Assembly: GCF_965641715.1 (NCBI RefSeq)
Contig: NZ_OZ282453.1
DNA length: 64,000 nt
Direction: 5' to 3' (one strand)
Source of the DNA: Escherichia coli
GTDB taxonomy: Bacteria; Pseudomonadota; Gammaproteobacteria; Enterobacterales; Enterobacteriaceae
Every line of letters begins with the position of its first letter. Position 1 is the stretch's first letter. Shown piece after piece: positions 27,165 through 43,394 of this stretch. Made by a program: the position numbers and the translations under genes. The notes under the pieces are model-generated. The model worked only from the letters and a program-made list of their open reading frames with translations, searched no databases and was not told the origin of the DNA.

Positions 27165-28178
27165 CTATCCAAAAAAATGGTCCCAGGCATTACCAGCCCA
27201 CTCGATAAGTTTGTCTTTCCCCTTACGGGTAAGCTCTTTGACAGGCTTTGGTAACGGAAAAGAATCAATAACGTCGTCGAGTATCCCGGAGATTACGCTG
27301 CCGAAGCCGTTTTTTGCTTCCGTCTTGACCTCTTCGGTTTTGAACTCATCCTTAAACTGCGAAGCCGTGCTACTTTTAGCCCGATCAGGCAAAGCCCGAA
27401 TAATAGTCTCTACCAGACGAAGAATGTTGTAGCCCTCATCGGCGGAGACAGGTGTCACCGGATAGTGCGTAAAACCAAATCGTTCAGTAATGTAGGCTTC
27501 TTTCTTTTCGATGTTGATGCGCTGTGCAGGAGATGGCTGATGCAGATGAGTATCCCACTCGCGGAATGGCTCAATTTTATCAACCTGGTTAAGGACGAAT
27601 AAAACGCGCTCACCCCCACCAGCAGGGAGCAGAACATTGTTGTAGAAATGCTCATCCGCAGAAAAGGCCCGATCGTCTCCTTTTATTACCCACAGGATAA
27701 GATCCAGGGAGGGAAGCAAATTGCGGTATAAATCTTCATACTCCTTATCCCGCCGGGCATTCTCACCGACACCAGGTATATCAATGATCTTTAGCGAATG
27801 TTTGCCGAAGCGTATACGCAATTCCTGAACTTCGCGAGTACATGCCTCAACGTCGCTAACTGCACAAACCTCCCCTTTAAACAGCGCATTACATACGCTG
27901 CTTTTCCCCGCGCCTGTTTTTCCCATGACACCAATCACAGGTTCATAGTCGATGGCTTCACTGATTTTGTTCAACAGCTTTTCCCGCAGTGGCTGAGGGA
28001 AAATATCAAGAATATCCCTGATGTCGGGTATGTGCGGTTTGCTATCACCTTTTTGCTCGTTGCTACCATTACGTTCTGGAAATATATTGCCCCACATTCC
28101 AAAAATCCCGCCTTCCCTTCTGGTGACGCCACTGGCATCAGTAATCATCCGGCCTTCGCCCTTTACCGGGTCATCCAT
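27165..28178 (-). CDS. YfjP/YeeP-family GTPase
   Basis: P-loop GVMGKTGAGKSS and G3-like DIPGVGE. Confidence 0.75.
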   Translation of the reverse strand: MDDPVKGEGRMITDASGVTRREGGIFGMWGNIFPERNGSNEQKGDSKPHIPDIRDILDIFPQPLREKLLNKISEAIDYEPVIGVMGKTGAGKSSVCNALFKGEVCAVSDVEACTREVQELRIRFGKHSLKIIDIPGVGENARRDKEYEDLYRNLLPSLDLILWVIKGDDRAFSADEHFYNNVLLPAGGGERVLFVLNQVDKIEPFREWDTHLHQPSPAQRINIEKKEAYITERFGFTHYPVTPVSADEGYNILRLVETIIRALPDRAKSSTASQFKDEFKTEEVKTEAKNGFGSVISGILDDVIDSFPLPKPVKELTRKGKDKLIEWAGNAWDHFFG

Positions 28179-28217
28179 ACGAGGTCTCCTTTTTTAATTT
28201 GAAATAAACGTTGTCTG

Positions 28218-28901
28218 TTACTCTCTGAAGGTCTGAATTACGTCACTTATGAAACGAAAGTGTGGGAGGGCTGAAATGAACTCTTCACTGGCAGTCAGAG
28301 CATCAAGTTCAGGCTTTCTGCGAAAAGAGGTATCCAGAACGGTTACGGCGTTAACGTCTTCCATCCGAAACACCTGTAAATTTCTGGTGCGGGTAGCAAC
28401 AAGAAACCAGTTTTTGGACTGAAATATCAGACGGCGGGGAGCTACTGCTTCGTAGCTTTTACCGTTAACTAATAATGTAACGGCGCGGTAGTCGCGGATA
28501 GCTTCCGCCAGTTCCAGAAAACAGGCGGTTTGTGTAACTGGAGATGGCAGCCCTCCATGCCCTATAAGGCACGGCGAGCTTCCGGAGTTACTGGTAATCA
28601 GTCGAATTAACCTGCGATTCTGAGCCGGAATAATCCCTGAAATCCCGGAATTACGGATAAACGCAAAGGTGTTGGGTGAGTGCTCCCGGCCCGTTCGGCG
28701 GGTAAGTCGATAGCTTCCGCTGGAATGCTCAAGATCCAGATGGATTAGGCGTTGCTGAAAATCCCTCTGTAGGGTGCGTTCTGAGACACCAAATTCATCA
28801 GCTAACGCTTTAAGCTCCAGAGATTCGCCAGCTAGTAAGCGGGTGATAATGACCGATAGCCTGACAGACAGGCGGTCATAATGATCATGCTGTGTTTTCA
28901 T
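28218..28901 (-). CDS. HTH/WYL-domain transcriptional regulator (YfjR-like; from the ATG at 28901, the ORF track starts at 28988)
   Basis: N-terminal HTH LKALADEFGVSERTLQRDFQQ...; C-terminal WYL-like region. Confidence 0.6.
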   Translation of the reverse strand: MKTQHDHYDRLSVRLSVIITRLLAGESLELKALADEFGVSERTLQRDFQQRLIHLDLEHSSGSYRLTRRTGREHSPNTFAFIRNSGISGIIPAQNRRLIRLITSNSGSSPCLIGHGGLPSPVTQTACFLELAEAIRDYRAVTLLVNGKSYEAVAPRRLIFQSKNWFLVATRTRNLQVFRMEDVNAVTVLDTSFRRKPELDALTASEEFISALPHFRFISDVIQTFRE

Positions 28902-29216
28902 GGTGGGGACAGTCCTGTTCTCCCAAAATATCATGGTATTGATACGAGAGATTATGCCGTACAGGTACGACACGTTATGTCGTAGCAAAGGGGAGTGGAT
29001 AGAAAAAATGGCGAAGATGTGAAGAGTTGATTAATTCATTGAAACAAAATGAATTAATAATAATTTTGGGTAAAAGCGACGTCAAAATACGACATAACCT
29101 GTCGTATTTTGTTTTAGCCGGGAAAGGATAACTGCTACTTACTAAAATGATTTAGTGCTGAAAATATTTATAAGCCAATAAATAGACCGGTATTACGGAG
29201 TAACGCCCCGGCTATG

Positions 29217-30194
29217 TTAACGTGCCCGCTGTTTTATCGGCTCAAAAAACATATCCCAGAGATGTTCAGCCATACCCTCGTTAGTGAGCAAGGTATCCCT
29301 TGAGTAGCCAGGGCTGAAGACGCCCATTGATGGGCGAAAACCAAGGTTCTGGCCGTTATTGTCAATGGTTAAGATTTCATTGTAAGCATTGCCAATCACG
29401 CCATCCTGGCTATAACCAATATCGCCCATCCCCATATTTCGCCCGCTATTACGCCAGATTGCACATTGACCTACTTTGCTTCCCCCAATGTAGATCGCAC
29501 AAGTGAAGGCATCTGCGTCACGCTTATTAAAATCGACCTCTAACCCGGCATGGCGTTTTTTGAGTTCAGTCAGCGAGCCTTCAAAATAACGGGCGACATA
29601 TTCAAAACCGTCACGGCAGGCACGATCCTTATCAAGATCGGTAAAACGTTTTGGCAGTGAAAGGTTGCTCGAGCGTGGTGTAAAAACGGTATCCGTCGCC
29701 TGAAGCATTGGATTAGCCGGAGCTGGGGCGTGCACAATCTGTTGCGGCTTTTTCGCTTCCAAATTGGCAATAGCGCGGGAAACGGCATCGACAACCTGAA
29801 CATAGCCTTCATCATGGCTGGCAAATTTATCAATTGGCTTACCGTCAACAGTTGCCGCCAGAATGCGGCCAAACGGTAACATCTTCCACGCGCATTCTCT
29901 TAAGATCACCGGAATGACCACCGCCTCGCCCCGGCTATGTCGCTCCAGAGCGTTGGTCATTTCTACCTGATAGCAATAATCAGAAGCGATAAAATCACTG
30001 CTAATCAGCAACAGGATGATGTCTGCCTGAGAAAAGTAATGATCTATTTGGTTCTCAAACTCTTGTCCTGGAATGATGCGACGATCATGCCATGTCGTGA
30101 TCTTGCCCATGCGTTTCAGGGGGGAAAGATGCTTCTCAAGCTCATTGCGCAGAGCTTCGTCTGCATGAGAATAGGAAAAAACAAGAGAGGTCAT
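29217..30194 (-). CDS. TIR-domain protein with an uncharacterised C-terminal domain (325 aa)
   Basis: N-terminal TIR signature LVFSYSHADEALRNELEKHL...IILLLISSDFIASDYCYQVEMTNALER...VVIPVILREC; divergent from hsdM. Confidence 0.65.
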   Translation of the reverse strand: MTSLVFSYSHADEALRNELEKHLSPLKRMGKITTWHDRRIIPGQEFENQIDHYFSQADIILLLISSDFIASDYCYQVEMTNALERHSRGEAVVIPVILRECAWKMLPFGRILAATVDGKPIDKFASHDEGYVQVVDAVSRAIANLEAKKPQQIVHAPAPANPMLQATDTVFTPRSSNLSLPKRFTDLDKDRACRDGFEYVARYFEGSLTELKKRHAGLEVDFNKRDADAFTCAIYIGGSKVGQCAIWRNSGRNMGMGDIGYSQDGVIGNAYNEILTIDNNGQNLGFRPSMGVFSPGYSRDTLLTNEGMAEHLWDMFFEPIKQRAR

Positions 30195-30409
30195 AGTGCG
30201 TAAGATGCTCCGATAGGGATGTGGAAAATACCGTTATTCTGCGCCGATAAGTGTAAAAGAGTTATCCCCCCTTACCACAAGGTATTGATGCGGAAATCAG
30301 TCCTACATCTTGGTATCGCTCTGACGTCAGGGTATGATCTCTAACAATTTCCCCGATTTTACACAACCTAGACACCAAACCAGGATCAGATGATTTTTTT
30401 GAGGTTTTA

Positions 30410-32116
30410 ATGGACAACGCTGAACAGCAATTTCTGAACGATCTGGATACTAAGTTCTGGAAAGCCGCAGACAAGCTACGCGCCAATATGGACGCAGCCA
30501 ACTACAAGCATGTGGTACTTGGGCTTATCTTTCTGAAGTATGTTTCAGATGCCTTTGACGCACGCCAGAAGGAACTGAAAGGACTGTTTGAAGACAAGTC
30601 CAACCCGGACAACATTTACGCGCTGTCTCGTGACGATTACGACACAGAAGAGGCGTACCAGCAGGCGATCGCAGAAGAGCTGGAAGTTCAGGATTACTAC
30701 ACTGAGAAAAACGTCTTCTGGGTACCCAAACTGGCTCGCTGGGAAACGCTTAAAACCAATGCTGCTCTACCTGTAGGGACGGTTCTGGGGAAAGACGATA
30801 GCGGCAAAGATATCGTCATGACGTCAGTATCGAAGCTGATTGATATCGCTCTGGATACTATCGAAAACAGCAACCCGAAACTGAAAAACATCCTTAACTG
30901 TATCGGACACTATCAGCTTGGTAACGACCTGCTAATTAGCCTGATTAACGTTTTCTCCGATACCAGTTTCAGCGAACCCAAATACAATGGCGTGAAGCTC
31001 AATTTGAAGAGCAAAGATATTCTCGGCCACGTTTACGAATACTTCCTTGGTCAGTTTGCACTGGCGGAAGGCAAACAGGGCGGCCAGTATTACACGCCGA
31101 AAAGCATCGTTACGCTGATTGTTGAAATGCTCCAGCCCTACAATGGCCGCGTGTATGACCCGGCGATGGGATCTGGCGGTTTCTTCGTTTCCAGCGATCG
31201 CTTTATCGAAGCACACGCTGATGAAAAGCATTACAACGCCGCTGAACAAAAACGCAATATCTCCGTTTACGGGCAGGAGTCCAACCCTACCACCTGGCGT
31301 CTGGCTGCGATGAATATGGTGATTCGCGGTATTGATTTTAACTTCGGTAAACAAAACGCCGATACGTTCCTGAACGACCAGCACCCGGATTTACGTGCCG
31401 ATTTTGTTATGGCGAACCCGCCATTCAACATGAAGGAGTGGTGGAACGCCAAGCTGGAAAACGACGTGCGCTGGAAATACGGCACGCCGCCTCAGGGCAA
31501 CGCCAACTTTGCGTGGATGCAGCACATGATCCACCACCTGGCGCCAAAAGGCTCGATGGCGCTGCTGCTGGCGAACGGTTCGATGAGCTCTAACACCAAC
31601 AACGAAGGCGAGATCCGCCGCAACCTGATCGAAGCCGATCTGGTCGAGTGCATGGTCGCGCTGCCAGGTCAGTTGTTTACCAACACCCAAATCCCGGCCT
31701 GTATCTGGTTCCTGACCAAAGACAAATCCGGCGGTAACGGCAAAGCACACCGTAAAGGCGAAGTGTTGTTTATCGACGCGCGTCAGATTGGCTTTATGAA
31801 AGACCGCGTGCTGCGTGATTTTAGCCGTGAAGATATCGCCAGAATTGCTGATATCTTCCACGCCTGGCAGACGGATAAAGGCTATGAAGACGAAGCTGGA
31901 TTCTGTTTCTCCGCAACGCTGGAAGATATCCAGAAAAACGACTTTGTGTTGACCCCTGGGCGCTATGTCGGTGCGGCCGAGCAAGACGAAGACGATGAGC
32001 CTTTTGCCGAGAAGATGGCACGACTGACGGCGCAGCTGAAAGATCAGCTGGAAGAGAGCGCGAAGCTGGAAGCACAGATTAAGGCGAATCTGGGGGGGCT
32101 GGGTTATGAGTTCTAA
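30410..32116 (+). CDS. hsdM: Type I restriction-modification methyltransferase subunit HsdM
   Basis: N6-adenine methyltransferase motifs: DPAMGSGGFF (AdoMet binding) and NPPF (MANPPFNM). Confidence 0.9.
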   Translation: MDNAEQQFLNDLDTKFWKAADKLRANMDAANYKHVVLGLIFLKYVSDAFDARQKELKGLFEDKSNPDNIYALSRDDYDTEEAYQQAIAEELEVQDYYTEKNVFWVPKLARWETLKTNAALPVGTVLGKDDSGKDIVMTSVSKLIDIALDTIENSNPKLKNILNCIGHYQLGNDLLISLINVFSDTSFSEPKYNGVKLNLKSKDILGHVYEYFLGQFALAEGKQGGQYYTPKSIVTLIVEMLQPYNGRVYDPAMGSGGFFVSSDRFIEAHADEKHYNAAEQKRNISVYGQESNPTTWRLAAMNMVIRGIDFNFGKQNADTFLNDQHPDLRADFVMANPPFNMKEWWNAKLENDVRWKYGTPPQGNANFAWMQHMIHHLAPKGSMALLLANGSMSSNTNNEGEIRRNLIEADLVECMVALPGQLFTNTQIPACIWFLTKDKSGGNGKAHRKGEVLFIDARQIGFMKDRVLRDFSREDIARIADIFHAWQTDKGYEDEAGFCFSATLEDIQKNDFVLTPGRYVGAAEQDEDDEPFAEKMARLTAQLKDQLEESAKLEAQIKANLGGLGYEF

Positions 32117-33461
32117 GTTTCGGAAAGTAAAACTATGTGAAATCCTCTCATTTAAGACAGGTAAACTCGACTCGAATGCAGCAGTAGATAATGGTTGTTA
32201 TCCTTTTTTTACTTGCTCGCCAGTTACACTTTCGATTAATACGCATGCTTTTGACACTGAAGCAGTATTATTAGCTGGTAATAACGCAAATGGGGTATTT
32301 TCAGTAAAATACCACAATGGTAAGTTTAATGCTTACCAAAGAACATATGTTATTACTCCTCTGGATAATTCAGCGGTCAATGTGAAATGGCTTTATTTTA
32401 GAATAAAATATGTTACGTCAGAATTACAATCAATGTCAGTTGGCACTGCAACAAAATTCTTAACAAAAAAGATTTTGGATTCATTTGAGATTGAACTGCC
32501 AACTTTTGAAGAGCAAACATATCAAGCTCAGATTTTATGGGCGTTACAGGATAAATTAGCTAATAATGAAGCTATAAACCAAACTCTCGAACAAATGGCG
32601 CAAGCCCTGTTCAAAAGCTGGTTTGTCGATTTTGAACCGGTAAAAGCCAAAATGGCAGCGTTGGAAGCGGGCGGTTCGCAGGAAGACGCGACACGTGCCG
32701 CCATGACGGCAATTTCCGGGAAAGATGCTGATGCGTTGGTGGTTTTTGCGCGTGAACATCCTGAGCAATATGCCGAGTTAAAAGCCACGGCAGAACTGTT
32801 TCCGTCTGCGGTGCAGGAAAGTGAGTTGGGGGCGATTCCTAAAGGATGGGGGGTGGCGTCAATTAGTGAGATGGGGAAGATTACTTGTGGCAAAACTCCG
32901 TCAAAAAAAGAACCAAAGTATTACGGTGGTGATGTTCCATTCATAAAGATACCAGATATGCATGGGCAACTCTTTGTGCTTAAAACTAATGAATATTTAA
33001 GCGAAGTCGGTTCAAAGTCGCAACTAAAAAAACTTGTGCCCGCTAACTCTATCTGTGTTAGTTGTATAGCTACTATTGGTGTTGTTTCTATCACCAATGA
33101 ACCATCTCATACCAATCAGCAAATAAATTCGGTTACACCTTATAAGAGTTCATTACTTTATTATCTTTATTTTTGTATATTGGGATTGAAAGATCATCTT
33201 CACGTTTTAGGTAGCGCAGGTAGTGCAACCTTAAATGTCAATACGTCTACTTTCTCAGGAATTAAAATCGCTCAGCCTGATGCTAAAGTATTGGAGTTAT
33301 TTCATGCCAAATGTACACAATTATTTAATGAGATTAAATCGCTCTGTGTACAAACTGAATCACTTGCACAACTACGAGACACCCTCCTCCCCAAACTCCT
33401 CTCCGGAGAAATTACGTTACCGGATGCCGAGGAAATAGCCAAGGAAGCTGACTATGTTTAA
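32106..33461 (+). CDS. hsdS: Type I restriction-modification specificity subunit HsdS
   Basis: Overlaps the hsdM stop; two AT-rich variable segments alternating with GC-richer conserved segments, as expected for two target-recognition domains. Confidence 0.85.
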   Translation: MSSKFRKVKLCEILSFKTGKLDSNAAVDNGCYPFFTCSPVTLSINTHAFDTEAVLLAGNNANGVFSVKYHNGKFNAYQRTYVITPLDNSAVNVKWLYFRIKYVTSELQSMSVGTATKFLTKKILDSFEIELPTFEEQTYQAQILWALQDKLANNEAINQTLEQMAQALFKSWFVDFEPVKAKMAALEAGGSQEDATRAAMTAISGKDADALVVFAREHPEQYAELKATAELFPSAVQESELGAIPKGWGVASISEMGKITCGKTPSKKEPKYYGGDVPFIKIPDMHGQLFVLKTNEYLSEVGSKSQLKKLVPANSICVSCIATIGVVSITNEPSHTNQQINSVTPYKSSLLYYLYFCILGLKDHLHVLGSAGSATLNVNTSTFSGIKIAQPDAKVLELFHAKCTQLFNEIKSLCVQTESLAQLRDTLLPKLLSGEITLPDAEEIAKEADYV

Positions 33462-34647
33462 AGTCGATCAGCCCAGTAATAGCCTGCAACCGCTTCAGGA
33501 AACCACCTTCACTAACGCGGGTTTCACCGAGCGCTACCACTTACAGGAGTGGCTGGCAAAGCATCCGCAAGCATTGACTCGCAACAGCGATGACGAACTA
33601 CTTATCATCCAGAAAGAGTTTGCCGGGTTTGACGACACCAAAGAGCGGTTAGATCTGCTGGCGATCGACAAAGACGGCAATCTGGTGATCATCGAGAACA
33701 AGCTCGATGATTCCGGGCGTGATGTCGTATGGCAGGCGCTGAAGTACGCGGGCTACTGCGCGAATCTACGCAAAGAACATATTGTTGAGATCTTCCAGCG
33801 TTACCTCGATCAGAACGATCCAGAAGAAACACGCCCAGCCTCTGATGTGCTCGCAGAATTCCTCGAACATGAAAGCCTGGATGAAGTGCAAATTAACCAA
33901 AGCCGTTCCCAGCGTGTGATGATGGTTGCGGCAAATTTCCGCAAGGAAGTTACCAATACTGCGCTCTGGCTGATGCAGTTCAACATCCGTGTCCAATGCT
34001 TTAAGGTCACGCCTTACCGTTATGGAAATGATGTATTCATCGACATCCGCCAGGTTATTCCCACACCGGAAGCCGAATCCTACATGATCGGTATGGCGCA
34101 GAAGGAAGCAGAAGAACAATCAACCAGCGGTGAACTGAAACAGAGCCAACGCCTGCGCAAGGCGTTCTGGACGCAGATGCTGGAGAAATTTCATGCCAGC
34201 GACTGTACGCTGTATAACAACATCAGCCCGTCTATGGATCACTGGTTATGTGCAGGCTCTGGCATAAGTGGTATGCCTTATAGCCTAATATTCAGCAAGA
34301 AGGAAATCCGCGTAGAATTATGGATTTCGCGAGCATCGGCAGACATCAACACCATGGCGTTGAACTGGCTTGAACAACACCGCACATCTGTCGAAGAGGT
34401 ATTCGGCAACCCACTGGAGTGGCTATCGCTACCTGGTAAAAAAGCCTGCCGTATTCAATACCGCCAAAAAATAGATGGCTTCCAGCAGGAAAATTGGCCG
34501 CAAATGATCGACTGGCTGGTGGAACATATGACCCGTTTTGAGAATGCGCTTTCGCCGTATCTGCCACAGCTTAACCAGTTGATCAAGCAGACCTTTAACG
34601 GGCATGATGAAGCTGAAAATACAACAGAAGAAGCCGAACACGTATAA
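33454..34647 (+). CDS. Uncharacterised 397-aa protein inside the RM operon, with a PD-(D/E)xK-like motif
   Basis: Start overlaps the hsdS stop; 16 bp before hsdR; RLDLLAIDKDGNLVIIENKLDD resembles a D...E-x-K nuclease core; no Walker A. Confidence 0.6.
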   Translation: MFKVDQPSNSLQPLQETTFTNAGFTERYHLQEWLAKHPQALTRNSDDELLIIQKEFAGFDDTKERLDLLAIDKDGNLVIIENKLDDSGRDVVWQALKYAGYCANLRKEHIVEIFQRYLDQNDPEETRPASDVLAEFLEHESLDEVQINQSRSQRVMMVAANFRKEVTNTALWLMQFNIRVQCFKVTPYRYGNDVFIDIRQVIPTPEAESYMIGMAQKEAEEQSTSGELKQSQRLRKAFWTQMLEKFHASDCTLYNNISPSMDHWLCAGSGISGMPYSLIFSKKEIRVELWISRASADINTMALNWLEQHRTSVEEVFGNPLEWLSLPGKKACRIQYRQKIDGFQQENWPQMIDWLVEHMTRFENALSPYLPQLNQLIKQTFNGHDEAENTTEEAEHV

Positions 34648-34662
34648 CACAGGACGTTACCG

Positions 34663-37600
34663 ATGCTTACCGAAGACGACTTAGAACAGCTTTGCCAGGG
34701 CTGGTTTGCCGAACAAGGTTGGGAAATCCATCATGGGCCAGATATTGCCCCCGATGGCTGTAACCCGCAACGCGCCAGCTATCATGATGTATTCCTGACG
34801 CCCGTGTTGAACGCCTGCCTGCAAAAAATCAACCCGCACCTGCCCACTGACGTCTTCGAACAGGTCATCTCCCGTATTACTCGCGCTGAAAGCCCGGATC
34901 TGATTGCCAGTAACAAAGCCTTTCATCACTGGTTGCTGGAAGGGGTTCCGGTACAGTACCGTCGCGACGAAGAACTTATCCACGACCACGCCCTGCTGGT
35001 GGATTTTAGCCAGCCGCAAAACAACCGTTTTATGGTGGTCAATCAAATGACTATCAGCGGAACGAAACAGCCTCGCCGCCCGGATATCATCTGCTTTATT
35101 AACGGAATACCACTGGCGGTTGTGGAACTAAAAAGCCCTGTCGATGACAAGGTAGATATCTGGGATGCGTACCACCAGTTACAGACCTATAAAGATGAAA
35201 TACGCGACCTGTTTATCAGCAATGAAGCGTTGATTGTCAGTGATGGTTATCTGGCGCGTGTGGGGTCCCTGACCGCCACGGAAGAACGTTTTATGCCGTG
35301 GAAGACCATCAGCAATGAAAATGACAAGCCGTTGCTGGAATGGCAACTGGAAACTATGGTACGGGGTTTCTTCAACCGGGAATTGCTGCTCGACTATATC
35401 CGCTATTTCGTTCTGTTTGAAAATAACGATGAAAGGCTAATTAAGAAAATAGCTGGTTATCACCAGTTCCACGCGGTGCGTGAGGCCGTGCAGGCGACGA
35501 TCGTTGCTTCGACCGGTAAGCAACTGGTACTGCACAGTAATATTCAGCCAGGCAGTAAGAAAGCAGGCGTGGTCTGGCATACGCAGGGTTCCGGTAAAAG
35601 CATCTCCATGTGTTGCTATGTCGGCAAACTGTTGCAACAGCCGGAGATGGGCAACCCGACGATTGTTGTTGTGACCGATCGTAACGATCTGGACGGCCAG
35701 CTTTATGGTACATTCTGCCAGGCACAGGAGCTGCTCAAGCAAATGCCGGTACAGGCAGATGATCGTGAAACATTGCGTGATCTGCTTGCAACTCGCGATG
35801 CTGGCGGCATTATCTTTACCACCGTGCAGAAATTCTCCCCGGAAGAAGGGGAAAACGCCCATCCGATTCTCAATGGACGCAGCAATATCGTTGTTATTTC
35901 CGATGAAGCGCACCGCAGCCAGTACGGCATGAAAGCCAACCTGGATCGTAAAACCGGCGTCTATAAATACGGTTACGCTAAACATATGCGCGACGCGCTA
36001 CCTAACGCCTCGTTTCTGGGATTTACCGGTACACCGGTTTCGGCAGAGGATCGCGATACTCGCGCTGTATTTGGCGATTACGTCTCAATTTATGATATTC
36101 AGGACGCTGTGGACGATGGCGCAACGGTGCCTATTCACTATGAATCCCGGCTGGCAAAACTCGATCTCAATCATGAAGAGCTGGCGGCGCTGTCCGATCA
36201 GGTTGAAGAACTGATTGAGGACGATGAGCTGGATCAGAGAGAAAAAACCAAAGGTGAATGGAGCCGTCTGGAGAAACTAGTTGGTGCTAAACCACGTCTT
36301 CAGCAGATCGCTGCCGATCTGATTTCTCACTTTGAGAAGCGCAATACCGTAATGGACGGCAAGGCGATGATTGTCGCCATGAGCCGTGAAATCTGCGTCC
36401 ATCTTTACGATGAAATTATTGCGTTGCGTCCGGAGTGGCACGATGACGATCCTGAAAAAGGGCAAATCAAAATCGTGATGACCGGTACAGCATCTGATAA
36501 GGCAATGCTGCAACCGCATATCTACAACAAACGGACTAAAAAACGGCTGGAATCCCGCTTCAAGAATGTGAACGACCCGCTGAAGCTGGTGATAGTGCGT
36601 GATATGTGGCTGACCGGCTTTGATGCCCCATGCTGTCACACTATGTATATCGACAAACCGATGCGCGGCCATAACCTGATGCAGGCTATTGCCCGTGTCA
36701 ACCGGGTATTCAAAGACAAGCCCGGCGGGCTGGTGGTGGATTATATTGGTATCGCCAATGAGCTGAAACTGGCGCTGAAAACTTATACCGATGCAAACGG
36801 TAAAGGTGATGCGACCGTCAACGCTGAAGAAGCACTGGCAATCATGCTGGAAAAGCTGGACATCATCCACGGTATGTTTGCCAAAACGGCAACGTCAGCG
36901 GGTTTTGATTACACCGGCTTTGAAGCTCATGCGCAGAAGTTGCTAGTACCAGTTGCAAACTATGTGCTCGGCCTTGAAGACGGTAAGAAGCGTTTTCTCG
37001 ATAACGTACTGGCAATTACTAAAGCCTGGTCGCTTTGCTGTACGCTGGATGCGGCGCAGCCTTATAAACTAGAGATTGCTTTCTTGTCGGCGGTAAAAGC
37101 TGCTATCAGCAAATTCACCAGTGTGGACAAAAAAATAAGCCAGGCTGAGAAGAACTCCGCGCTGAAACAGATTCTGGATAATGCCGTAATTGCTAACGGC
37201 GTGGATGATATTTTCACGCTGGCTGGTCTGGATAAACCGAATATTGGCTTGCTTTCAGATGAATTCTTGCAGGAAGTCCGCGATATGCCATATCGAAATC
37301 TGGCGGTAGAGCTGCTGGAAAAACTGATTAATGACGGTATCCAGTCCCGTACAAAAAACAATGTAGTGCAGGAGAGGAAATATTCAGAACGTCTTCAGGC
37401 TGTATTGATTAAATACAACAACCGGGCTATTGAGACGGCGCAGGTGATTGAAGAGCTGATCCAGATGGCGAAGGATTTTCAGTCTGCAATGGCGCGTGAT
37501 GATGCGCTTGGCCTGAATCCTGACGAGATCGCTTTCTACGATGCACTGGCAGAAAACGAAAGCGCCGTCCGGGAGTTAGGAGATGAGGTACTTAAGAAAC

Positions 37601-37797
37601 TGGCGATAGAAGTGACGCTGAAGCTGCGCCAATCCACTACCGTTGACTGGCAGGTACGGGAAAGCGTTCGTGCAAGGCTGCGTATCCTGGTTCGCCAGAC
37701 TCTGCGTCGGTATAAGTATCCGCCAGATAAAACGCCGGGTGCGGTGGAGTTAATTTTGAAACAAGCGGAAGTTATTTCGAATCATTGGACGATGTGA
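34663..37797 (+). CDS. hsdR: Type I restriction-modification endonuclease/helicase subunit HsdR
   Basis: 1044 aa; Walker A TQGSGKS, DEAH box [11 protein letters not shown], and further helicase motifs. Confidence 0.9.
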
Positions 37798-37861
37798 ATT
37801 TTAGGCTGGCTGTATCAACTGCCAGCCATATTTAAATTATCATCAGTTAAAAGGCACAATT

Positions 37862-39604
37862 GTGAGTAAATATAGCGAAATACAACGTCAATTAGATGAA
37901 GTAAGCCCAATACCGAAAGGTATTCCTAAAGTATACCTTTTAGGGGACACTGGAGCAGGAAAGACGACTTTTATTCGAAAAATATTAGGAACTGAAAATA
38001 CCAAATTCCCTACCACCAGACAAAGTAGAACAACCGTTGCACCAACTGAGTATGTAATATGTAAATCATCCAATTATGAATTAACGATTCTGTTAAAATC
38101 TTTTGATGAGATTAATGGATATGTCAGAGAAATTCTAAAAGAAGCATTAGAGAAATCATTGAAAGGTGAAGATGTTAAAAGAAGCTTACGTCAAACAAAT
38201 GATCAGCGGTTTCGTTTATACTATCTTCTTGACGTCAGTGATATTGCAAATTTTGCTGAAGAAGTTATCTCTCTTACACCTCTTCTTTCCGAAAAAATTG
38301 ACGAATTAAAAGAAATTTTTACCGATGATATAACGGATCAAGATGAGTATATTAGTTTTGCTATTGATGAATTAAATGATAAAGTTGAATGTATCCAAAA
38401 TAAGATTATGGACTCCATTCAGAGTAATGTAATGTCCATTTGTAATGGAAGTATGTTAAGTAATGAATCACAGATATTTAAATACATTTCAACCGAAAAA
38501 GAAGACTTTATCAAAAAATGTAAAAAAATATTATCAAGTGATAAAGAGTCTATATCACCTGTTGTCGAGTATGCGAGACTGAGTGGAGAACTCAAATCAG
38601 AATGGGTGAATAGTTGTGCAGAAATAGTTATTATTGATGGTGAAGGTATTGGGCATAATACAAAAGAAACGGCACAACTAGACTCCAGGCATTATGATTT
38701 CTTTTATGATGTTAACTCAATCTTGCTTATCGAAGAGTCAAAAAAACCTTTTATTGCTGGGGGCAAAAATGCATTAAAAAGTATTTTTCAGCGTGGATAT
38801 GGTGATAAATTAAAACTAATCTTCACTAAGCTGGATGAAGTTATACCTTATGATTCAGACGAATCAACAGATGAAGATAGAATTGATTATGTAAAAGATG
38901 GTCTCAATAATGTTCTGGATGCATTAAAAAAAGAAGAGGTGAAGTGTAACATTGATATCGAGGATATTTATTTCATCGGAGATCTTGATAAACCTGAGCA
39001 TAACGCAAGACTTGAATTGGCTTTTAATTCCATATATGAAAACACAGTTTCCATGATAAATAATGATGAGGTTTTCATTGAGCCTAAGTATGACTTTGAG
39101 TTATTGGCCTTGCATATAAATTCTACTTCTAATGATTTTAAAACATACTATAGAAAATTATTAGATAGAGAACATTGGAAAACAATAGAAGCATTTAATC
39201 GACGGATGTATTCAAATATAGATGGGTTTAGGATGTTTATGCCTATTACCGATTTTGAGGAAACTGTGAGTAAATATATTGGTGGTTTTTTGACCTCGCC
39301 AATGGATTGGAAATATGAAGCGGTTGATAACTTGAAGCAAAAAAGTATTAATAAAATCAAGAGGGAATTCAACAAGCTTATTCTTAGCTTTATTCGCAAT
39401 AAGTTAATTATGGAACCATATGAAAAATGGAAAGAATCCTATTTCTTAGCTGGCACTGGTTCAACGATTAGTAGAAAACGTGAGATAACTACTATTTTTA
39501 GTGACACAATTATTGATGCCTCCCAAACTGAACGCTTTAAGGTGTTCAAGGATCAAATTAAAGAGATTGTTGTCAAGTCAATAGAGAACTGTAAGTCAAT
39601 ATAA
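37862..39604 (+). CDS. AT-rich P-loop GTPase-like protein (580 aa, GTG start)
   Basis: G1 GDTGAGKTT, G3-like DGEGIG, G4-like TKLD; much more AT-rich than the flanking hsdR. Confidence 0.6.
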   Translation: MSKYSEIQRQLDEVSPIPKGIPKVYLLGDTGAGKTTFIRKILGTENTKFPTTRQSRTTVAPTEYVICKSSNYELTILLKSFDEINGYVREILKEALEKSLKGEDVKRSLRQTNDQRFRLYYLLDVSDIANFAEEVISLTPLLSEKIDELKEIFTDDITDQDEYISFAIDELNDKVECIQNKIMDSIQSNVMSICNGSMLSNESQIFKYISTEKEDFIKKCKKILSSDKESISPVVEYARLSGELKSEWVNSCAEIVIIDGEGIGHNTKETAQLDSRHYDFFYDVNSILLIEESKKPFIAGGKNALKSIFQRGYGDKLKLIFTKLDEVIPYDSDESTDEDRIDYVKDGLNNVLDALKKEEVKCNIDIEDIYFIGDLDKPEHNARLELAFNSIYENTVSMINNDEVFIEPKYDFELLALHINSTSNDFKTYYRKLLDREHWKTIEAFNRRMYSNIDGFRMFMPITDFEETVSKYIGGFLTSPMDWKYEAVDNLKQKSINKIKREFNKLILSFIRNKLIMEPYEKWKESYFLAGTGSTISRKREITTIFSDTIIDASQTERFKVFKDQIKEIVVKSIENCKSI

Positions 39605-39706
39605 TAAGATAGAACAGTCCCGGATAATATTCGGGACTCATACACTTACAGATGGAGCTATGAATTTAGCAGTAAGAGTATTTGTGATTATTTAAGGAAA
39701 GTAACA

Positions 39707-40672
39707 ATGCCTTTAGATTTAAGTAACACTTTAGTTATTGGCATTAGCGCGACTGCGCTTTTTGACATGAGCGAATCCGACCATATGTTTCGGGAAACCT
39801 TTGCGACTGATCCTGATAGCGCCATTGAAAAATACCGCGCTTATATGCTAGAACACGAAAACCAACCTTTACAGCCCGGAACAGGCTACCCCTTAGTCAA
39901 AGCGTTGCTGGGTCTGAACCAGTACCGTCAACCGGATGATAAATCGCCGTTGGTTGAGGTTGTTGTGATGTCACGTAACAGCCCTGATACAGGTATCCGC
40001 GTTCTCAATACCATTCGCCATGACAAACTCGATATTACACGTTCAGCTTTTACCGCAGGCGAAACCGTTGCCGATTACCTTGATGCCTTTGATGTGGATC
40101 TGTTTTTAACGACCAACGTTGAAGATGCGCAAAAGGTGATTGATTCCCGATTCTGCGCCGCTGCAATCCTGAAAGATCCACCTTCTGACGCATCTGATAT
40201 CCCAGAAGGGCAAGTGCGCATTGCTTTTGATGGCGACGCGGTACTTTTTTCCGATCAAAGCGAACTGGTTTATAAGACCCAAGGAATGGCTGCCTTCCAT
40301 GCTCAGGAAGACGCGCAGCAGGATATCCCTATGGAAGAGGGGCCTTATGCCACTTTGCTAAAAAAAATAGCCAAGCTTCAGGAACGATTGCCGACCCGCG
40401 TTGAGTATTCTCCTGTTCGTATTGCGCTGGTGACAGCCCGAAATAGCCCTTCGGAAATGCGCGTTATTAAAACGCTAAGAAGCTGGGGGGTATATGTCGA
40501 TGAAGCTTTTTTTCTTGGCGGTGTAGAGAAAACAAAAGTTCTGAAGGCGTTTAGGCCACACATTTTCTTTGACGATCAGGATGTGCATTTGATCGCGGCT
40601 GCAAAGGTAGTACCTTCTGGTAAAGTACCTTATGCCAGTAACTCCGAACTTGCAGAACGTGAAGCATCGTGA
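39707..40672 (+). CDS. 5'-nucleotidase-family protein (HAD-like)
   Basis: HAD-type motif IAFDGDAVLFSD and C-terminal FFDDQDVH; family assignment from memory. Confidence 0.5.
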   Translation: MPLDLSNTLVIGISATALFDMSESDHMFRETFATDPDSAIEKYRAYMLEHENQPLQPGTGYPLVKALLGLNQYRQPDDKSPLVEVVVMSRNSPDTGIRVLNTIRHDKLDITRSAFTAGETVADYLDAFDVDLFLTTNVEDAQKVIDSRFCAAAILKDPPSDASDIPEGQVRIAFDGDAVLFSDQSELVYKTQGMAAFHAQEDAQQDIPMEEGPYATLLKKIAKLQERLPTRVEYSPVRIALVTARNSPSEMRVIKTLRSWGVYVDEAFFLGGVEKTKVLKAFRPHIFFDDQDVHLIAAAKVVPSGKVPYASNSELAEREAS

Positions 40673-40749
40673 TTATCGCTGACAAACCATTTAGTCATTA
40701 AGACTGAATGGTTTGTATGCCACTCGCAAAATATCTGCCCTACCTCAAA

Positions 40750-41670
40750 TCAATGCTCTCCTCTGAACACCTCTTTTCTGTGCCATTCCACAAACTGCTC
40801 GCCCGGATAATTTTCTTTAACCGGTGGCAACGCAATCGCCTTTCCCGCAAAATCCCAGAACAGTCGCTGTACCACTCCACCACCATTTACCGCGCCGGAA
40901 ACCACCACACGCATATTTTCATCCAAGCCAATCGAACCGCGATCAAACGCTTTATGATGGATTGCGCACAATGCCAGGCCATTAGGTACTTCACAAGGGC
41001 CATGGTGCTGCTTCCATCTGATATGAGCAGCTTCCAGAGCAATTGGCGCATTGTCGTGGCGCATGTTGAAGCCGCAGATCGCACACTGATAATTGTAAGC
41101 ACGTAGCACCATCTGGCGGAACTTCGGATCGCGTTGACGGAGAGAGGTGCGAATATCAAAACCCATCTCGTCAGCTATCTCTTCCTGAATACTGGCCGGG
41201 AAATGCGCCTCCAGGAGCTGCTGCGCCAGCGTATCAATTAACCTGTGATTTTTTGCCACCAACGCAAAATTATCGGCATCAAATCCACCAGCGACATTAT
41301 ATTCAATGAGTTCACGTCGGGGCGGCTGGCGGCTACCACTGGTTGAGCACAGTTGTGCGTTTTGTAGTTCCCAGAAGCCATCGCCCTTCAGACGCCAGAA
41401 CGGCATGTCCGGGCGCTGGTCACGGCGCTGCGGTCCATAACGTTCCAGAAGATCCAACAGGGGCTCGTAGATTTCAGAACCATAGTTAAACAGGCGACCA
41501 TGACCCTGCCGATAGTGTGAGAGGACGTGCAGCAGCAATAATGGCTTATGTGGCGCACGTTGTTCGCCTTTGCGCCAGATGGTGATATTTGATATCGCTT
41601 GCTTTAGGGCTTTGTCAGAGGTCATTGCGTTGAAGAATCCATGAGCACATATTTGCGATGATGCTCGCAA
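40750..41670 (-). CDS. HNH-nuclease-domain protein (306 aa) beside the integrase
   Basis: C-terminal His-Me finger YQCAICGFNMRHDNAPIALEAAHIRWKQHHGPCEVPNGLALCAIHHKAFDRG; N-terminal region shares the KPLLLL motif with the fragment at 8904-9146. Confidence 0.6.
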   Translation of the reverse strand: MRASSQICAHGFFNAMTSDKALKQAISNITIWRKGEQRAPHKPLLLLHVLSHYRQGHGRLFNYGSEIYEPLLDLLERYGPQRRDQRPDMPFWRLKGDGFWELQNAQLCSTSGSRQPPRRELIEYNVAGGFDADNFALVAKNHRLIDTLAQQLLEAHFPASIQEEIADEMGFDIRTSLRQRDPKFRQMVLRAYNYQCAICGFNMRHDNAPIALEAAHIRWKQHHGPCEVPNGLALCAIHHKAFDRGSIGLDENMRVVVSGAVNGGGVVQRLFWDFAGKAIALPPVKENYPGEQFVEWHRKEVFRGEH

Positions 41671-41840: not shown

Positions 41841-43109
41841 TCACTCGCCATTACCCCGATTGATCTTCGCATAGTCAAACGGCGTAATCGCTCTCTCCCG
41901 ATTGGCATCCAGAAAATCAGCCCACCACTGCAACATCAGCTTGCGCTCATCCAGGTGTTCCGCTTTATGGATATACGCCGCCCTCACCGAGCTGCGTTCC
42001 ATATGGCTCATCTGCCTTTCCACCGCATCCTTCGACCATAACCCTGACTCAATCAATGAGCTACAGGCCATTGTGCGGAAGCCGTGGCCGCAAACTTCAA
42101 CCTTAGTGTCATAACCCATCACCCGTAGCGCACTGTTTACCGTGTTCTCGCTCATGGGCTTACGCGGATCGTGATCGCCAATAAAAATCAGCTCATGTTC
42201 GCCACAGAACTGTTTTATCTGCTTCAGGATCGCCAGCGCCTGCTTTGAAAGCGGCACCAGATGCGGTGTACGCATCTTTGAACCTCGCTGAGAATGTTTC
42301 ACACCGGGAATCGGTTCTCGCTCAGGCGGGATGGTCCACATTGACGTTTCAAAATCGATTTCTGACCAGCGAGCAAAACGTAGCTCACTGGATCGAATAA
42401 AGATAAGCAGAGTGAGTTCTGTCGCCCAGCGGGTTAGCGGCCTGCCTGTATAGCTATCTATTTTCTCAAGTAACTCAGGGATACGCTTTAATTCCAGCGC
42501 CGGGCGATGCTGTCGATTGCCAGAGGCGACTGCTCCAGCCATCTCCTGCGCTGGGTTGTAATCAATCAGCCCACTTTGCACTGCATAACGCATAATGGCC
42601 GTGGTACGCTGTTGGAGACGAGAAGCCACCTCAAGACGTCCAGACAGTTCCACCGCTTTAATGGGTGCCAGTAAGTCACGAGTGCCCAATTCGGCAATAT
42701 TGCGAGAACCAATTGCCGGGAAGATATTGTCCTCCAGGCTCTTTTTTACACGATTAGCATGATCTTCTGACCATTTTTGGTTGGTTACGAGCCACTCTCT
42801 GGCAACCTTCTCGAAAGTAATAATCTCTTTCGCCTGCTCTTCTTTCACAGCACGCTTATGCTCACGAGGATCGATACCAGCAGCTACCAGCTTTCTGGCC
42901 TCTTCCCTTTTCTTCCTGGCATCTGCCAGCGAAACATCCGGGTAAACGCCGAACGCCATCAAATGTTGTTTACCGCCAAAACGGAAACGAAATCGCCAAT
43001 ACTTTGAACCGCCAGGTTTTACAAGTAAGGACATGCCATCGCCGTCAACAAGTGAATACTCTTTCTCCTCAGGTTTCGCAGAGCGAACTTTAGTATCCGT
43101 TAGGGCCAT
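41841..43109 (-). CDS. intB: P4-type tyrosine integrase (from the ATG at 43109; the ORF track starts at 43187)
   Basis: MALTDTKVRSAKPEEKEYSLVDGDG...; C-terminal ...HGFRTMACSSLIESG... catalytic region; about 200 bp from the leuX 3' end. Confidence 0.9.
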   Translation of the reverse strand: MALTDTKVRSAKPEEKEYSLVDGDGMSLLVKPGGSKYWRFRFRFGGKQHLMAFGVYPDVSLADARKKREEARKLVAAGIDPREHKRAVKEEQAKEIITFEKVAREWLVTNQKWSEDHANRVKKSLEDNIFPAIGSRNIAELGTRDLLAPIKAVELSGRLEVASRLQQRTTAIMRYAVQSGLIDYNPAQEMAGAVASGNRQHRPALELKRIPELLEKIDSYTGRPLTRWATELTLLIFIRSSELRFARWSEIDFETSMWTIPPEREPIPGVKHSQRGSKMRTPHLVPLSKQALAILKQIKQFCGEHELIFIGDHDPRKPMSENTVNSALRVMGYDTKVEVCGHGFRTMACSSLIESGLWSKDAVERQMSHMERSSVRAAYIHKAEHLDERKLMLQWWADFLDANRERAITPFDYAKINRGNGE

Positions 43110-43270
43110 AATGGTCTTCCTTCCATTGGTATCTCGTGAGTATACAAGCAATATCGAATCGGCAAATATACTCATTAGTATACTCACAAGCCTGTTGATG
43201 TGGGTTGGTTCAGGTTGACTTCAGTTGAGGAGAAAAGCTGGAAAAGCCTTGCGTGGCGCGGATTTCAGGC

Positions 43271-43309: not shown

Positions 43310-43394
43310 TGGTGCCGAAGGCCGGACTCGAACCGGCACGTATTTCTACGGTTGATTTTGAATCAACTGCGTCTACCGATTTCGCCACTTCGGC
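43310..43394 (-). tRNA. leuX: tRNA-Leu (leuX), intact with CCA end
   Basis: Reverse complement GCCGAAGTGGCGAAATCGGTAGACGCAGTTGATTCAAAATCAACCGTAGAAATACGTGCCGGTTCGAGTCCGGCCTTCGGCACCA; 85 nt. Confidence 0.95.

Follow-up and report, generated by a model that had tools for sequence, protein, structure and literature searches.

Introduction

What does a gene lodged between hsdS and hsdR of a type I restriction-modification (RM) operon contribute to its host? In the Escherichia coli prr locus, this position is held by prrC, which encodes an ABC-type NTPase combined with a tRNA(Lys) anticodon nuclease that the RM complex keeps latent and that T4 Stp activates. A 64,000-nucleotide stretch of E. coli DNA (hereafter the window) carries another gene in the equivalent slot, and an initial annotation from the sequence alone proposed that it is not PrrC but may be an analogous backup effector guarded by the RM complex. 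We directly examined its ORF and operon anatomy, family membership, catalytic-residue conservation, fold, and association with type I genes, and we infer its dependence on modification, the substrate on which this orthologue acts, and its Hsd independence in the window gene's clade.

Operon anatomy

ORF calling across the window placed an ATG-initiated gene between hsdS and hsdR (Table 1). Judged from its sequence, the type I system flanking this gene is genuine and apparently intact: the hsdR match to TIGR00348 exceeds the curated cutoff, and the encoded HsdR distantly matches that of EcoR124I (E about 1e-29). The initial annotation correctly described a 397-aa ORF whose start overlaps the hsdS stop. 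The hsdS TAA (33459-33461) overlaps the embedded ATG by 8 nt (junction ATGTTTAA); 7-13 nt before that ATG stands AAGGAAG, which resembles a Shine-Dalgarno sequence. The embedded gene's own TAA (34645-34647) falls shortly before the hsdR ATG (34663), as was also claimed, although the gap measures 15 nt and not 16 bp. Scanning positions 29900-40800 for promoters and terminators yielded sites not above shuffled-sequence expectation, none of them convincing within the operon as an element that would uncouple the embedded gene from hsd. This fits the earlier suggestion of co-transcription as hsdM-hsdS-ORF-hsdR. Composition was also considered as an indicator of separate acquisition, but it is uninformative because the GC content of the embedded gene (49.5%) matches that of hsdM and hsdR (50-51%); that of hsdS is 39.5%.

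Table 1. Features of the type I operon and of the embedded gene, in window coordinates
Feature	Position	Strand	Description
Candidate sigma-70-like promoter	30310-30338		before hsdM; not above chance
hsdM	30410..32116	+	type I RM methyltransferase subunit, 568 aa, first gene of the operon; TIGR00497 E=1.8e-49
hsdS	32106..33461	+	specificity subunit, 451 aa, two target-recognition halves; NF007278 E=7e-10
Embedded gene	33454..34647	+	PDC-S11/MdgA-family nuclease, 'DUF4268 domain-containing protein', 397 aa
N-terminal NucS/RecB-type PD-(D/E)xK nuclease domain	33454..34065	+	aa 1-204
Predicted catalytic/motif residues	E26 33529-31; D67 33652-54; E81 33694-96; K83 33700-02; Q94 33733-35; Y98 33745-47
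Active-site segment LDLLAIDKDGNLVIIENKLDD	33649..33711	+	aa 66-86; E81 is the counterpart of MdgA E77
C-terminal DUF4268 domain	34153..34563	+	Pfam match, aa 234-370
hsdR	34663..37797	+	type I restriction subunit, 1044 aa; TIGR00348 E=5.5e-186

Protein architecture and active site

The embedded protein combines an N-terminal nuclease domain and a C-terminal DUF4268 domain, connected by a long helix (aa 205-248). The PD-(D/E)xK-like segment seen in the initial annotation was borne out by residue conservation and by structure prediction. Across 95 diverse homologues, E26, D67, K83, Q94, and Y98 were invariant and E81 was kept in at least 90%; the PDC-S11 family profile aligned to NucS over D-ExK-QxxxY, as a marginal match; and the AF2 model reached a pLDDT of 91.8. 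The protein sequence by itself matched nothing in the PDB. The catalytic arrangement D...ExK...QxxxY is shared with NucS/EndoMS, but the embedded protein lacks the NucS N-terminal DNA-binding and dimerisation domain, carries its nuclease N-terminally beside DUF4268, and occurs in the context of defence islands rather than repair. Membership in NucS/EndoMS was rejected, with NF003270 scoring 15.1 bits against a curated cutoff of 216, over profile positions 161-203 only, and with no NucS_N match.

Pfam DUF4268 (PF14088) matched over the whole model (positions 1-140 of 140, E=3e-36). Within this half, the full-length alignment shows F238, W239, and W323 as nearly invariant, and the C-terminal alignment adds W348. 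Conservation is nevertheless lower in DUF4268 than in the nuclease half, with a mean column identity of 31% and no residue that is invariant; orthologues may therefore differ in substrate specificity. Its fold resembles T3SS-chaperone/YbjN-like protein-binding modules and not known base-flipping readers, and structural comparison revealed no solved homologue with a known modified-base-binding function. PHROGs gave a match to a single, unannotated family covering the same half. DUF4268 is presumed to be the module that recognises the substrate or its modification, a reader role that is conjecture in the source paper too (PMC12366544). MspJI/AspBHI-type type IV enzymes differ in that their reader is an N-terminal SRA-like domain, to which DUF4268 has no similarity.

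The initial annotation also held that the protein has no Walker A motif and is not PrrC, and both points stand. A scan for [AG]xxxxGK[ST] was empty, the sole GK being part of a GKK at aa 328, and the protein has neither an NTPase nor an anticodon-nuclease domain; its C-terminus is DUF4268. With PrrC of the EcoprrI locus, it shares the hsdS-hsdR slot, the co-orientation, and a defence role, whereas its DNA-nuclease fold without an NTPase contrasts with the NTPase and anticodon nuclease of PrrC. PrrC is, moreover, almost exclusively embedded in type I loci (Payne et al.), whereas the PDC-S11 family acts alone and often lies outside them. We rejected assignment of the embedded gene to PrrC.

Family membership and relation to MdgA

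By its profile matches, the embedded gene is a new member of the PDC-S11/MdgA family, which is already catalogued. The PADLOC PDC-S11 model PDLC04913 matched aa 1-379 over model positions 1-373 of 375 (E=1.1e-177), and seven further PDC-S11 models matched with E-values of 2e-64 to 3e-28. The family comprises at least 6978 homologous clusters and has V[IV][IV]ENKLDDS as its hallmark; among sampled members, the motif E falls at position 77 in 78 and at position 81 in 113. RefSeq annotates the embedded gene as 'DUF4268 domain-containing protein' in 65 E. coli genomes; its carriers make up about 1-2% of complete E. coli genomes, and the gene is 97-98% conserved across 59 E. coli genomes.

The genotype of E. 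coli DH10B lacks hsdRMS. One family member, MdgA ('modification defense gene A', Cell Host Microbe 2025, PMC12366544), was on its own necessary and sufficient for defence against T4 in DH10B, and all phage assays of that study were made in MegaX DH10B. Purified MdgA alone degraded glucosyl-hydroxymethylcytosine (glucosyl-hmC) T4 DNA in vitro and T4-GT7 DNA far less; T4 and T4-GT7 were told apart in vivo and in vitro. Mu was likewise subject to MdgA defence, and E77A in the motif VIVENKLDD inactivated MdgA (PMC12366544). MdgA originates from insert T4-29 (contig F01A_T4_pc4_2), itself among the listed PDC-S11 matches, and such matches occurred on four independent inserts selected with T4 or T2 (PMC12366544).

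MdgA and the embedded protein share the NucS-type PD-(D/E)xK plus DUF4268 architecture, the PADLOC family, a family-typical N-terminus, and a single-gene organisation. Their catalytic motifs are essentially identical: the MdgA E77A primer encodes VIV[E>A]NKLDD, and the embedded protein has VIIE81NKLDD. They differ in surroundings, with a short-chain dehydrogenase gene next to mdgA in its insert (PMC12366544) and a type I operon around the embedded gene, and the DUF4268 domains of the two proteins may differ in specificity. What ties the embedded protein to MdgA is how the MdgA domains are described, the listing of its contig under the PADLOC family, and two peptides encoded by primers; identity between the two proteins is probably 35-50%, judged from family members with E at position 77. 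The 27-nt wild-type version of the E77A primer had no exact match in the metagenome collection, and none of 270 fetched homologues contained both primer-encoded MdgA peptides. P0187 was considered as MdgA and rejected: it contains VIVE77NKLDD, but its N-terminus differs, and it lies on a short contig adjoining a PLD-like gene.

Genomic context of homologues

Our context census comprised 49 species-level homologue loci with adequate flanks, type I genes being called absent when none lay within 6 kb. The family gene was embedded in a type I operon at 27 of these loci and had no type I gene within 6 kb at 16. Because the order hsdS-ORF-hsdR recurs in 27/49 loci, with the 8-nt hsdS overlap common to 15, it is far from a chance arrangement. 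In the window gene's clade (Enterobacterales and neighbouring Gammaproteobacteria), every locus was embedded and the 8-nt overlap was conserved. Across the family, a neighbor-joining tree requires at least nine changes in whether the gene is associated with type I genes. On IncFII plasmids, a homologue with 61% identity stands by itself next to repA. The family gene is also whole where its type I neighbours have decayed: in E. coli AH65 the adjacent hsdM is truncated, and in Photorhabdus only remnants of hsdS and hsdR adjoin it. An E. coli hsdMSR operon ~80% identical to that of the window has no insert, hsdS abutting hsdR. In other genomes, the same slot holds RhuM/Fic, DarT/DarG-like, GmrSD-like, or AAA+HNH genes, and at two loci (L033 and L041) GmrSD-like pairs occupy it together with the family gene. 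A 99%-identical copy in a Citrobacter amalonaticus assembly (L009) is apparently frameshifted.

The association with type I operons is facultative but strongly non-random. The embedded gene is a defence nuclease statistically linked to RM and mechanistically separable from it, and not a mobile-element gene unrelated to RM, the contrary outcome that the initial annotation had allowed for.

Proposed function and alternatives

We consider it probable that the embedded gene encodes an autonomous, modification-dependent (type IV-like) nuclease, co-transcribed with the type I genes and covering modified phage DNA that escapes the type I enzyme. It would act as a single chain, with a NucS-type site (E26...D67...E81-x-K83...Q94xxxY98), a long helix, and a C-terminal DUF4268. 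DUF4268 would read the hypermodification of phage DNA, for instance the glucosyl-hydroxymethylcytosine of T-even phages, and the PD-(D/E)xK site would cleave the DNA so recognised; neither a methyltransferase nor an NTPase nor Hsd proteins would be required. The architecture and the stand-alone homologues are compatible with the type IV class, the reader function of DUF4268 being conjecture. Placement between hsdS and hsdR would give co-transcription, translational coupling, and joint inheritance of two functions, whereby the type I enzyme would take unmodified DNA and the embedded nuclease the hypermodified phage DNA that escapes it.

Such nesting has parallels. The type IV pair TgvAB is embedded in a type I operon of Vibrio cholerae (VPI-2) and works without HsdR nuclease activity. 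TgvAB and BrxU/GmrSD are modification-dependent nucleases nested in type I RM or BREX systems, giving complementary coverage and functioning without the nuclease of the host system. They differ from the embedded protein in combining a DUF262 NTPase with a DUF1524 His-Me nuclease, as opposed to an NTP-independent PD-(D/E)xK site, and TgvAB needs two proteins.

The best-surviving alternative, which we regard as unlikely, is an autonomous nuclease with a trigger other than hypermodification (a DNA structure, a replication intermediate, or a phage protein), to which the MdgA phenotype would not transfer. The DUF4268 sensor half diverges strongly between orthologues and folds like protein-binding modules, and NucS recognises mismatches and branched DNA rather than modifications. 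The recovery of four independent PDC-S11 inserts from T4 and T2 selections, together with the discrimination by MdgA between T4 and T4-GT7, argues against such a trigger. So do the GmrSD-like pairs that share the slot with the family gene and, according to the cited papers, the fusion of DUF4268 to GmrSD type IV enzymes and to MdgB.

Guarding in the manner of PrrC, with a nuclease held latent on HsdMSR and freed when Ocr, Stp, or ArdA disables the type I enzyme, appears improbable. The slot is of the prrC type (hsdS - X - hsdR), more than half of the homologue loci are embedded, and the hsdS overlap extends throughout the window gene's clade; the full TgvAB type I cluster, too, protected 10-100-fold better than the embedded genes alone. 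Yet the protein has no NTPase/ABC or anticodon-nuclease domain, and no PrrC model, assumed to be present in the library, matched at E<=0.01. MdgA protects DH10B as a lone gene, and the purified protein is active; about one in three homologues lacks type I neighbours, with one lineage solitary on plasmids; the family gene outlives decay of hsdM, hsdS, or hsdR; the same hsdMSR family occurs without it; and the family is not confined to type I loci as PrrC almost exclusively is. The single-gene action of MdgA and the type I-free homologues indicate that the embedded nuclease most likely complements RM rather than being guarded by it. Of the backup effector first proposed, the phage-defence role is upheld, and latency and release by the RM complex are not.

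The window gene's clade is always embedded with the 8-nt overlap, and coupling to the type I complex may have arisen there. We entertain only tentatively, as an outside chance, that the nuclease in this enterobacterial and gammaproteobacterial clade is physically or regulatorily coupled to that complex; it might dock on HsdM2S, be brought to targets by HsdR translocation, or be released when an Ocr-type mimic binds. If true, it would be an analogue of the PrrC guard that cuts DNA. A separate and similarly doubtful idea is that DUF4268 forms a structurally new reader class: with its T3SS-chaperone/YbjN-like fold and conserved Trp residues, it could be a new reader of modified DNA or sugar.

That the gene is a selfish hitch-hiker, or a decayed passenger now without a function in this genome, is very improbable. 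Embedding ties inheritance to a selected system, an argument already made in the literature, and the C. amalonaticus copy is apparently frameshifted, but the reading frame is unbroken, every catalytic residue is conserved, the gene is highly conserved among E. coli genomes, and its family counts thousands of clusters. Least credible is that the gene serves the type I enzyme in an accessory role, as subunit or regulator (an extra nuclease, restriction-alleviation factor, or assembly factor) without a separate defence role, to which the translational coupling to hsdS, the close hsdR spacing, and the matching GC content would conform, but not the complete, closely related hsdMSR operon without the gene, the frequent homologues away from type I genes, or the unrelated cargo of the slot in other genomes.

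Implications

Embedding of this kind was already catalogued through guilt-by-embedding (PDC-S11), and one member has been biochemically characterised; the locus opens no new type of mechanism. For annotation, the 'DUF4268 domain-containing protein' of E. coli and of thousands of further clusters becomes an MdgA-like candidate type IV nuclease. More broadly, accessory defence genes repeatedly occupy the hsdS-hsdR slot of type I operons, and in this genome the pairing most likely joins defences against unmodified and hypermodified DNA.

Results and discussion

The 397-aa ORF embedded in the type I restriction-modification (RM) operon, established from the ORF list and the raw sequence, has its ATG within the 3′ end of hsdS (ATGTTTAA, an 8-nt overlap) downstream of a Shine-Dalgarno-like AAGGAAG. 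Its TAA stop (34645–34647) precedes the hsdR ATG at 34663 by a short gap, as the initial annotation had described, although the 16 bp given there are 15 nt by our count. Scanning the operon for consensus motifs revealed no internal promoter or terminator signals beyond those expected from shuffled sequence; the four genes therefore look co-transcribed, as had been supposed, with the embedded gene apparently coupled to hsdS in translation. The surrounding genes, which encode HsdM (TIGR00497, E = 2e-49), HsdR (TIGR00348, E = 5e-186) and an HsdS with two target-recognition domains, make up a complete and apparently intact type I system. The GC content of hsdS is 39.5% (GC3 32%) and that of hsdM and hsdR ~50% (GC3 55–63%); in E. 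coli relatives the hsdS region alone fails to align (operon coverage ~82%), and both observations suggest exchange of target-recognition domains.

Features of the island and of the embedded gene product (nt, positions in the window; aa, residues of the product in its AlphaFold2 model)
Feature	Position	Strand	Observation
Neighbouring large ORFs of 743 aa and 1581 aa	10302–17275	-	same island
WYL-domain regulator and GTPase-family protein	27165–28988	-	PADLOC WYL E = 5e-17; LeoA/LeoBC-like dynamin E = 4e-11
ThsB-like TIR-domain gene	29217–30194	-	PADLOC ThsB1 E = 2e-156; directly upstream of hsdM, divergent
hsdS	32106–33461	+	3′ end contains ATG of embedded gene
Embedded gene	33454–34647	+	397 aa
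580-aa ORF	37862–39604	+	starts 64 nt past hsdR stop; N-terminal P-loop GDTGAGKTTF
321-aa protein	39707–40672	+	PADLOC candidate PDC-S08 E = 5e-134; Pfam PF06189 5′-nucleotidase E = 5e-119
Phosphorothioated-DNA-binding restriction endonuclease	40750–41670	-	NF045808 E = 5e-133; HNH
Tyrosine integrase	41841–43187	-	adjoins tRNA-Leu(CAA)
tRNA-Leu(CAA)	43310–43394	-	next to tyrosine integrase
N-terminal alpha/beta nuclease domain	aa 1–204
Long helix	aa 205–248
Compact C-terminal domain	after long helix

The PADLOC profile of the candidate defence family PDC-S11 matched the protein end to end (E = 1.1e-177), seven sibling PDC-S11 profiles also matched strongly, and Pfam placed DUF4268 at aa 234–370 (E = 3e-36); RefSeq names the product 'DUF4268 domain-containing protein'. 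At the N-terminus, the Pfam signals for PD-(D/E)xK and NucS_C were weak, and the NCBIfam NucS match was far below threshold and confined to the active site. The PD-(D/E)xK-like segment read earlier from the sequence (LDLLAIDKDGNLVIIENKLDD, aa 66–86) nevertheless holds up: across 95 diverse aligned members, E26, D67, K83, Q94 and Y98 do not vary and at least 90% have E81. E...D...ExK...QxxxY is a NucS/RecB-type nuclease signature, and the family profile aligns with Pyrococcus NucS (2vld) precisely over D-ExK-QxxxY. Structure prediction, proposed as a check, gave a confident model (pLDDT 91.8) with an N-terminal nuclease domain and a separate C-terminal domain. The protein is almost certainly a nuclease of the PDC-S11/MdgA family, whose clusters number at least 6978 at the 90% level and 5102 at the 50% level (E ≤ 1e-3); the gene itself occurs in 65/5426 complete E. 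coli genomes at 97–98% identity. The definition of PDC families goes back to Payne et al., and the observation of the embedded gene was therefore already systematised.

The phage-defence nuclease MdgA was characterised in a functional-metagenomics study (Cell Host Microbe 2025, PMC12366544; bioRxiv 10.1101/2025.02.28.640651). It protected MegaX DH10B, in which its phage phenotypes were measured, from T4 and Mu, whereas it gave no protection from T4-GT7, a T4 derivative with unmodified C; once purified, the protein was far poorer at degrading T4-GT7 DNA than T4 DNA, and both defence and cleavage were lost with E77A (PMC12366544). Its source, insert T4-29 (contig F01A_T4_pc4_2), is one of four T4/T2-selected inserts matching PDC-S11 in the tables of that study (PMC12366544). 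Compared via the peptide encoded by the E77A primer, V-I-V-[E>A]-N-K-L-D-D (PMC12366544), MdgA reads V-I-V-E77-N-K-L-D-D where the window protein reads V-I-I-E81-N-K-L-D-D. The V[IV][IV]ENKLDDS motif is the family hallmark, with Glu at position 77 in 78 sampled members, and the mdgA start-codon primers may be read as M-Y-K-V-N-I-P, which would fit the family consensus MYK[VI].

We fetched 80 species-representative loci with the closest homologues (46–99% identity), annotated their type I genes by iterated HMM searches seeded with the window HsdM, HsdS and HsdR, and counted contexts in the 49 loci having at least 5 kb on each side. The gene was co-oriented with, and flanked by, hsdM/S and hsdR in 27 of the 49, near type I genes in another arrangement in 6, and without type I genes within 6 kb by HMM annotation in 16; the association is therefore very strong, not obligatory. 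A neighbour-joining tree requires at least nine switches between type I-associated and non-associated homologues, the window's own clade being uniformly embedded (8-nt hsdS overlap in 15 loci). One homologue (P0109, 61% identical, all catalytic residues) is solitary and adjoins repA on IncFII plasmids; it has 245 member sequences and, in E. coli IncFII plasmids (L003, L005–L008), lies ~1.2 kb from repA in the leading/maintenance region. More distant family members are either solitary or once more embedded. The gene is intact beside a truncated hsdM in E. coli AH65 and in Photorhabdus asymbiotica, where just hsdS and hsdR remnants of the RM genes are left, while in an E. coli hsdMSR operon ~80% identical to that of the window, hsdS directly abuts hsdR with no insert. 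These distributions, together with MdgA activity in DH10B, which we take to carry the mrr-hsdRMS-mcrBC deletion, argue that the nuclease can dispense with the Hsd proteins, and the RM system with the nuclease. Separately, a 99%-identical copy in Citrobacter amalonaticus AUH_CA_2023_1 (L009, 10001–14346) is split into two ORFs, as is its hsdR, reflecting either pseudogenes or assembly frameshifts.

The hsdS–hsdR slot is a general cargo site. Other genes lie between the DUF4268 gene and hsdR in homologue loci L018–L023, L025, L031, L033, L041, L043 and L076; assigned by eye from the sequences, slot cargo comprises RhuM/Fic-type proteins in related loci, a DarT/DarG-like pair (L025), an AAA ATPase with an HNH-like protein (L031) and DUF262/DUF1524 GmrSD-like pairs (L033, L041). 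The last mirror TgvAB, a type IV system within the Vibrio cholerae VPI-2 type I operon, which defends against glucosylated and arabinosylated T-even phages without requiring HsdR nuclease activity, and which its authors view as providing complementary coverage of phages with and without modified DNA (PMC11411939).

An island at tRNA-Leu(CAA) that carries an integrase, and that corresponds to the E. coli leuX island, harbours the operon; the whole defence cluster lies in this leuX-type integrated island. No ThsA-like partner of the ThsB-like gene was recognised among the neighbours examined; E. coli AH65 lacks the ThsB-like gene, its hsdM being truncated at that point, and keeps the WYL regulator/GTPase-family pair. 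The 580-aa ORF (GC 32% versus ~50% for the hsd genes) had no family match in Pfam or NCBIfam, and its PADLOC hits, to mad3/mad8, were marginal; it may be further uncharacterised defence cargo attached to the operon. The PDC-S08 protein could be a nucleotide-depleting defence candidate, the HNH endonuclease would be the island's second modification-dependent (type IV-like) nuclease, and the 743-aa protein had no NCBIfam match.

We propose that the window protein is an autonomous PD-(D/E)xK endonuclease, presumably Mg2+-dependent, that the DUF4268 module is the part that would target it to phage DNA carrying hypermodified bases, and that the co-expressed type I enzyme would deal with unmodified DNA. 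Taken as a whole, this mechanism is probable, with modification dependence and Hsd independence suggested by the MdgA and TgvAB precedents. An autonomous nuclease with another trigger is unlikely but conceivable, given a divergent sensor domain that lacks structural precedent. Less likely still is the backup effector guarded by the RM complex, in the manner of the anticodon nuclease PrrC, that the initial annotation had put forward: position and tight coupling would suit it, whereas PrrC domains are missing, a family member is active stand-alone and the homologues are distributed as described. That annotation was right that the protein is not PrrC and has no Walker A motif (none in a motif scan of the sequence); its placing of a defence gene where prrC would lie also stands, but the gene is most likely not RM-guarded. 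A functionless passenger is very improbable, and an accessory subunit of the RM enzyme marginally more so.

The modification-directed nuclease proposed here would be a new member of a known, recently characterised kind, and its solitary IncFII relative raises the question of a plasmid-borne anti-phage role or inter-plasmid competition.
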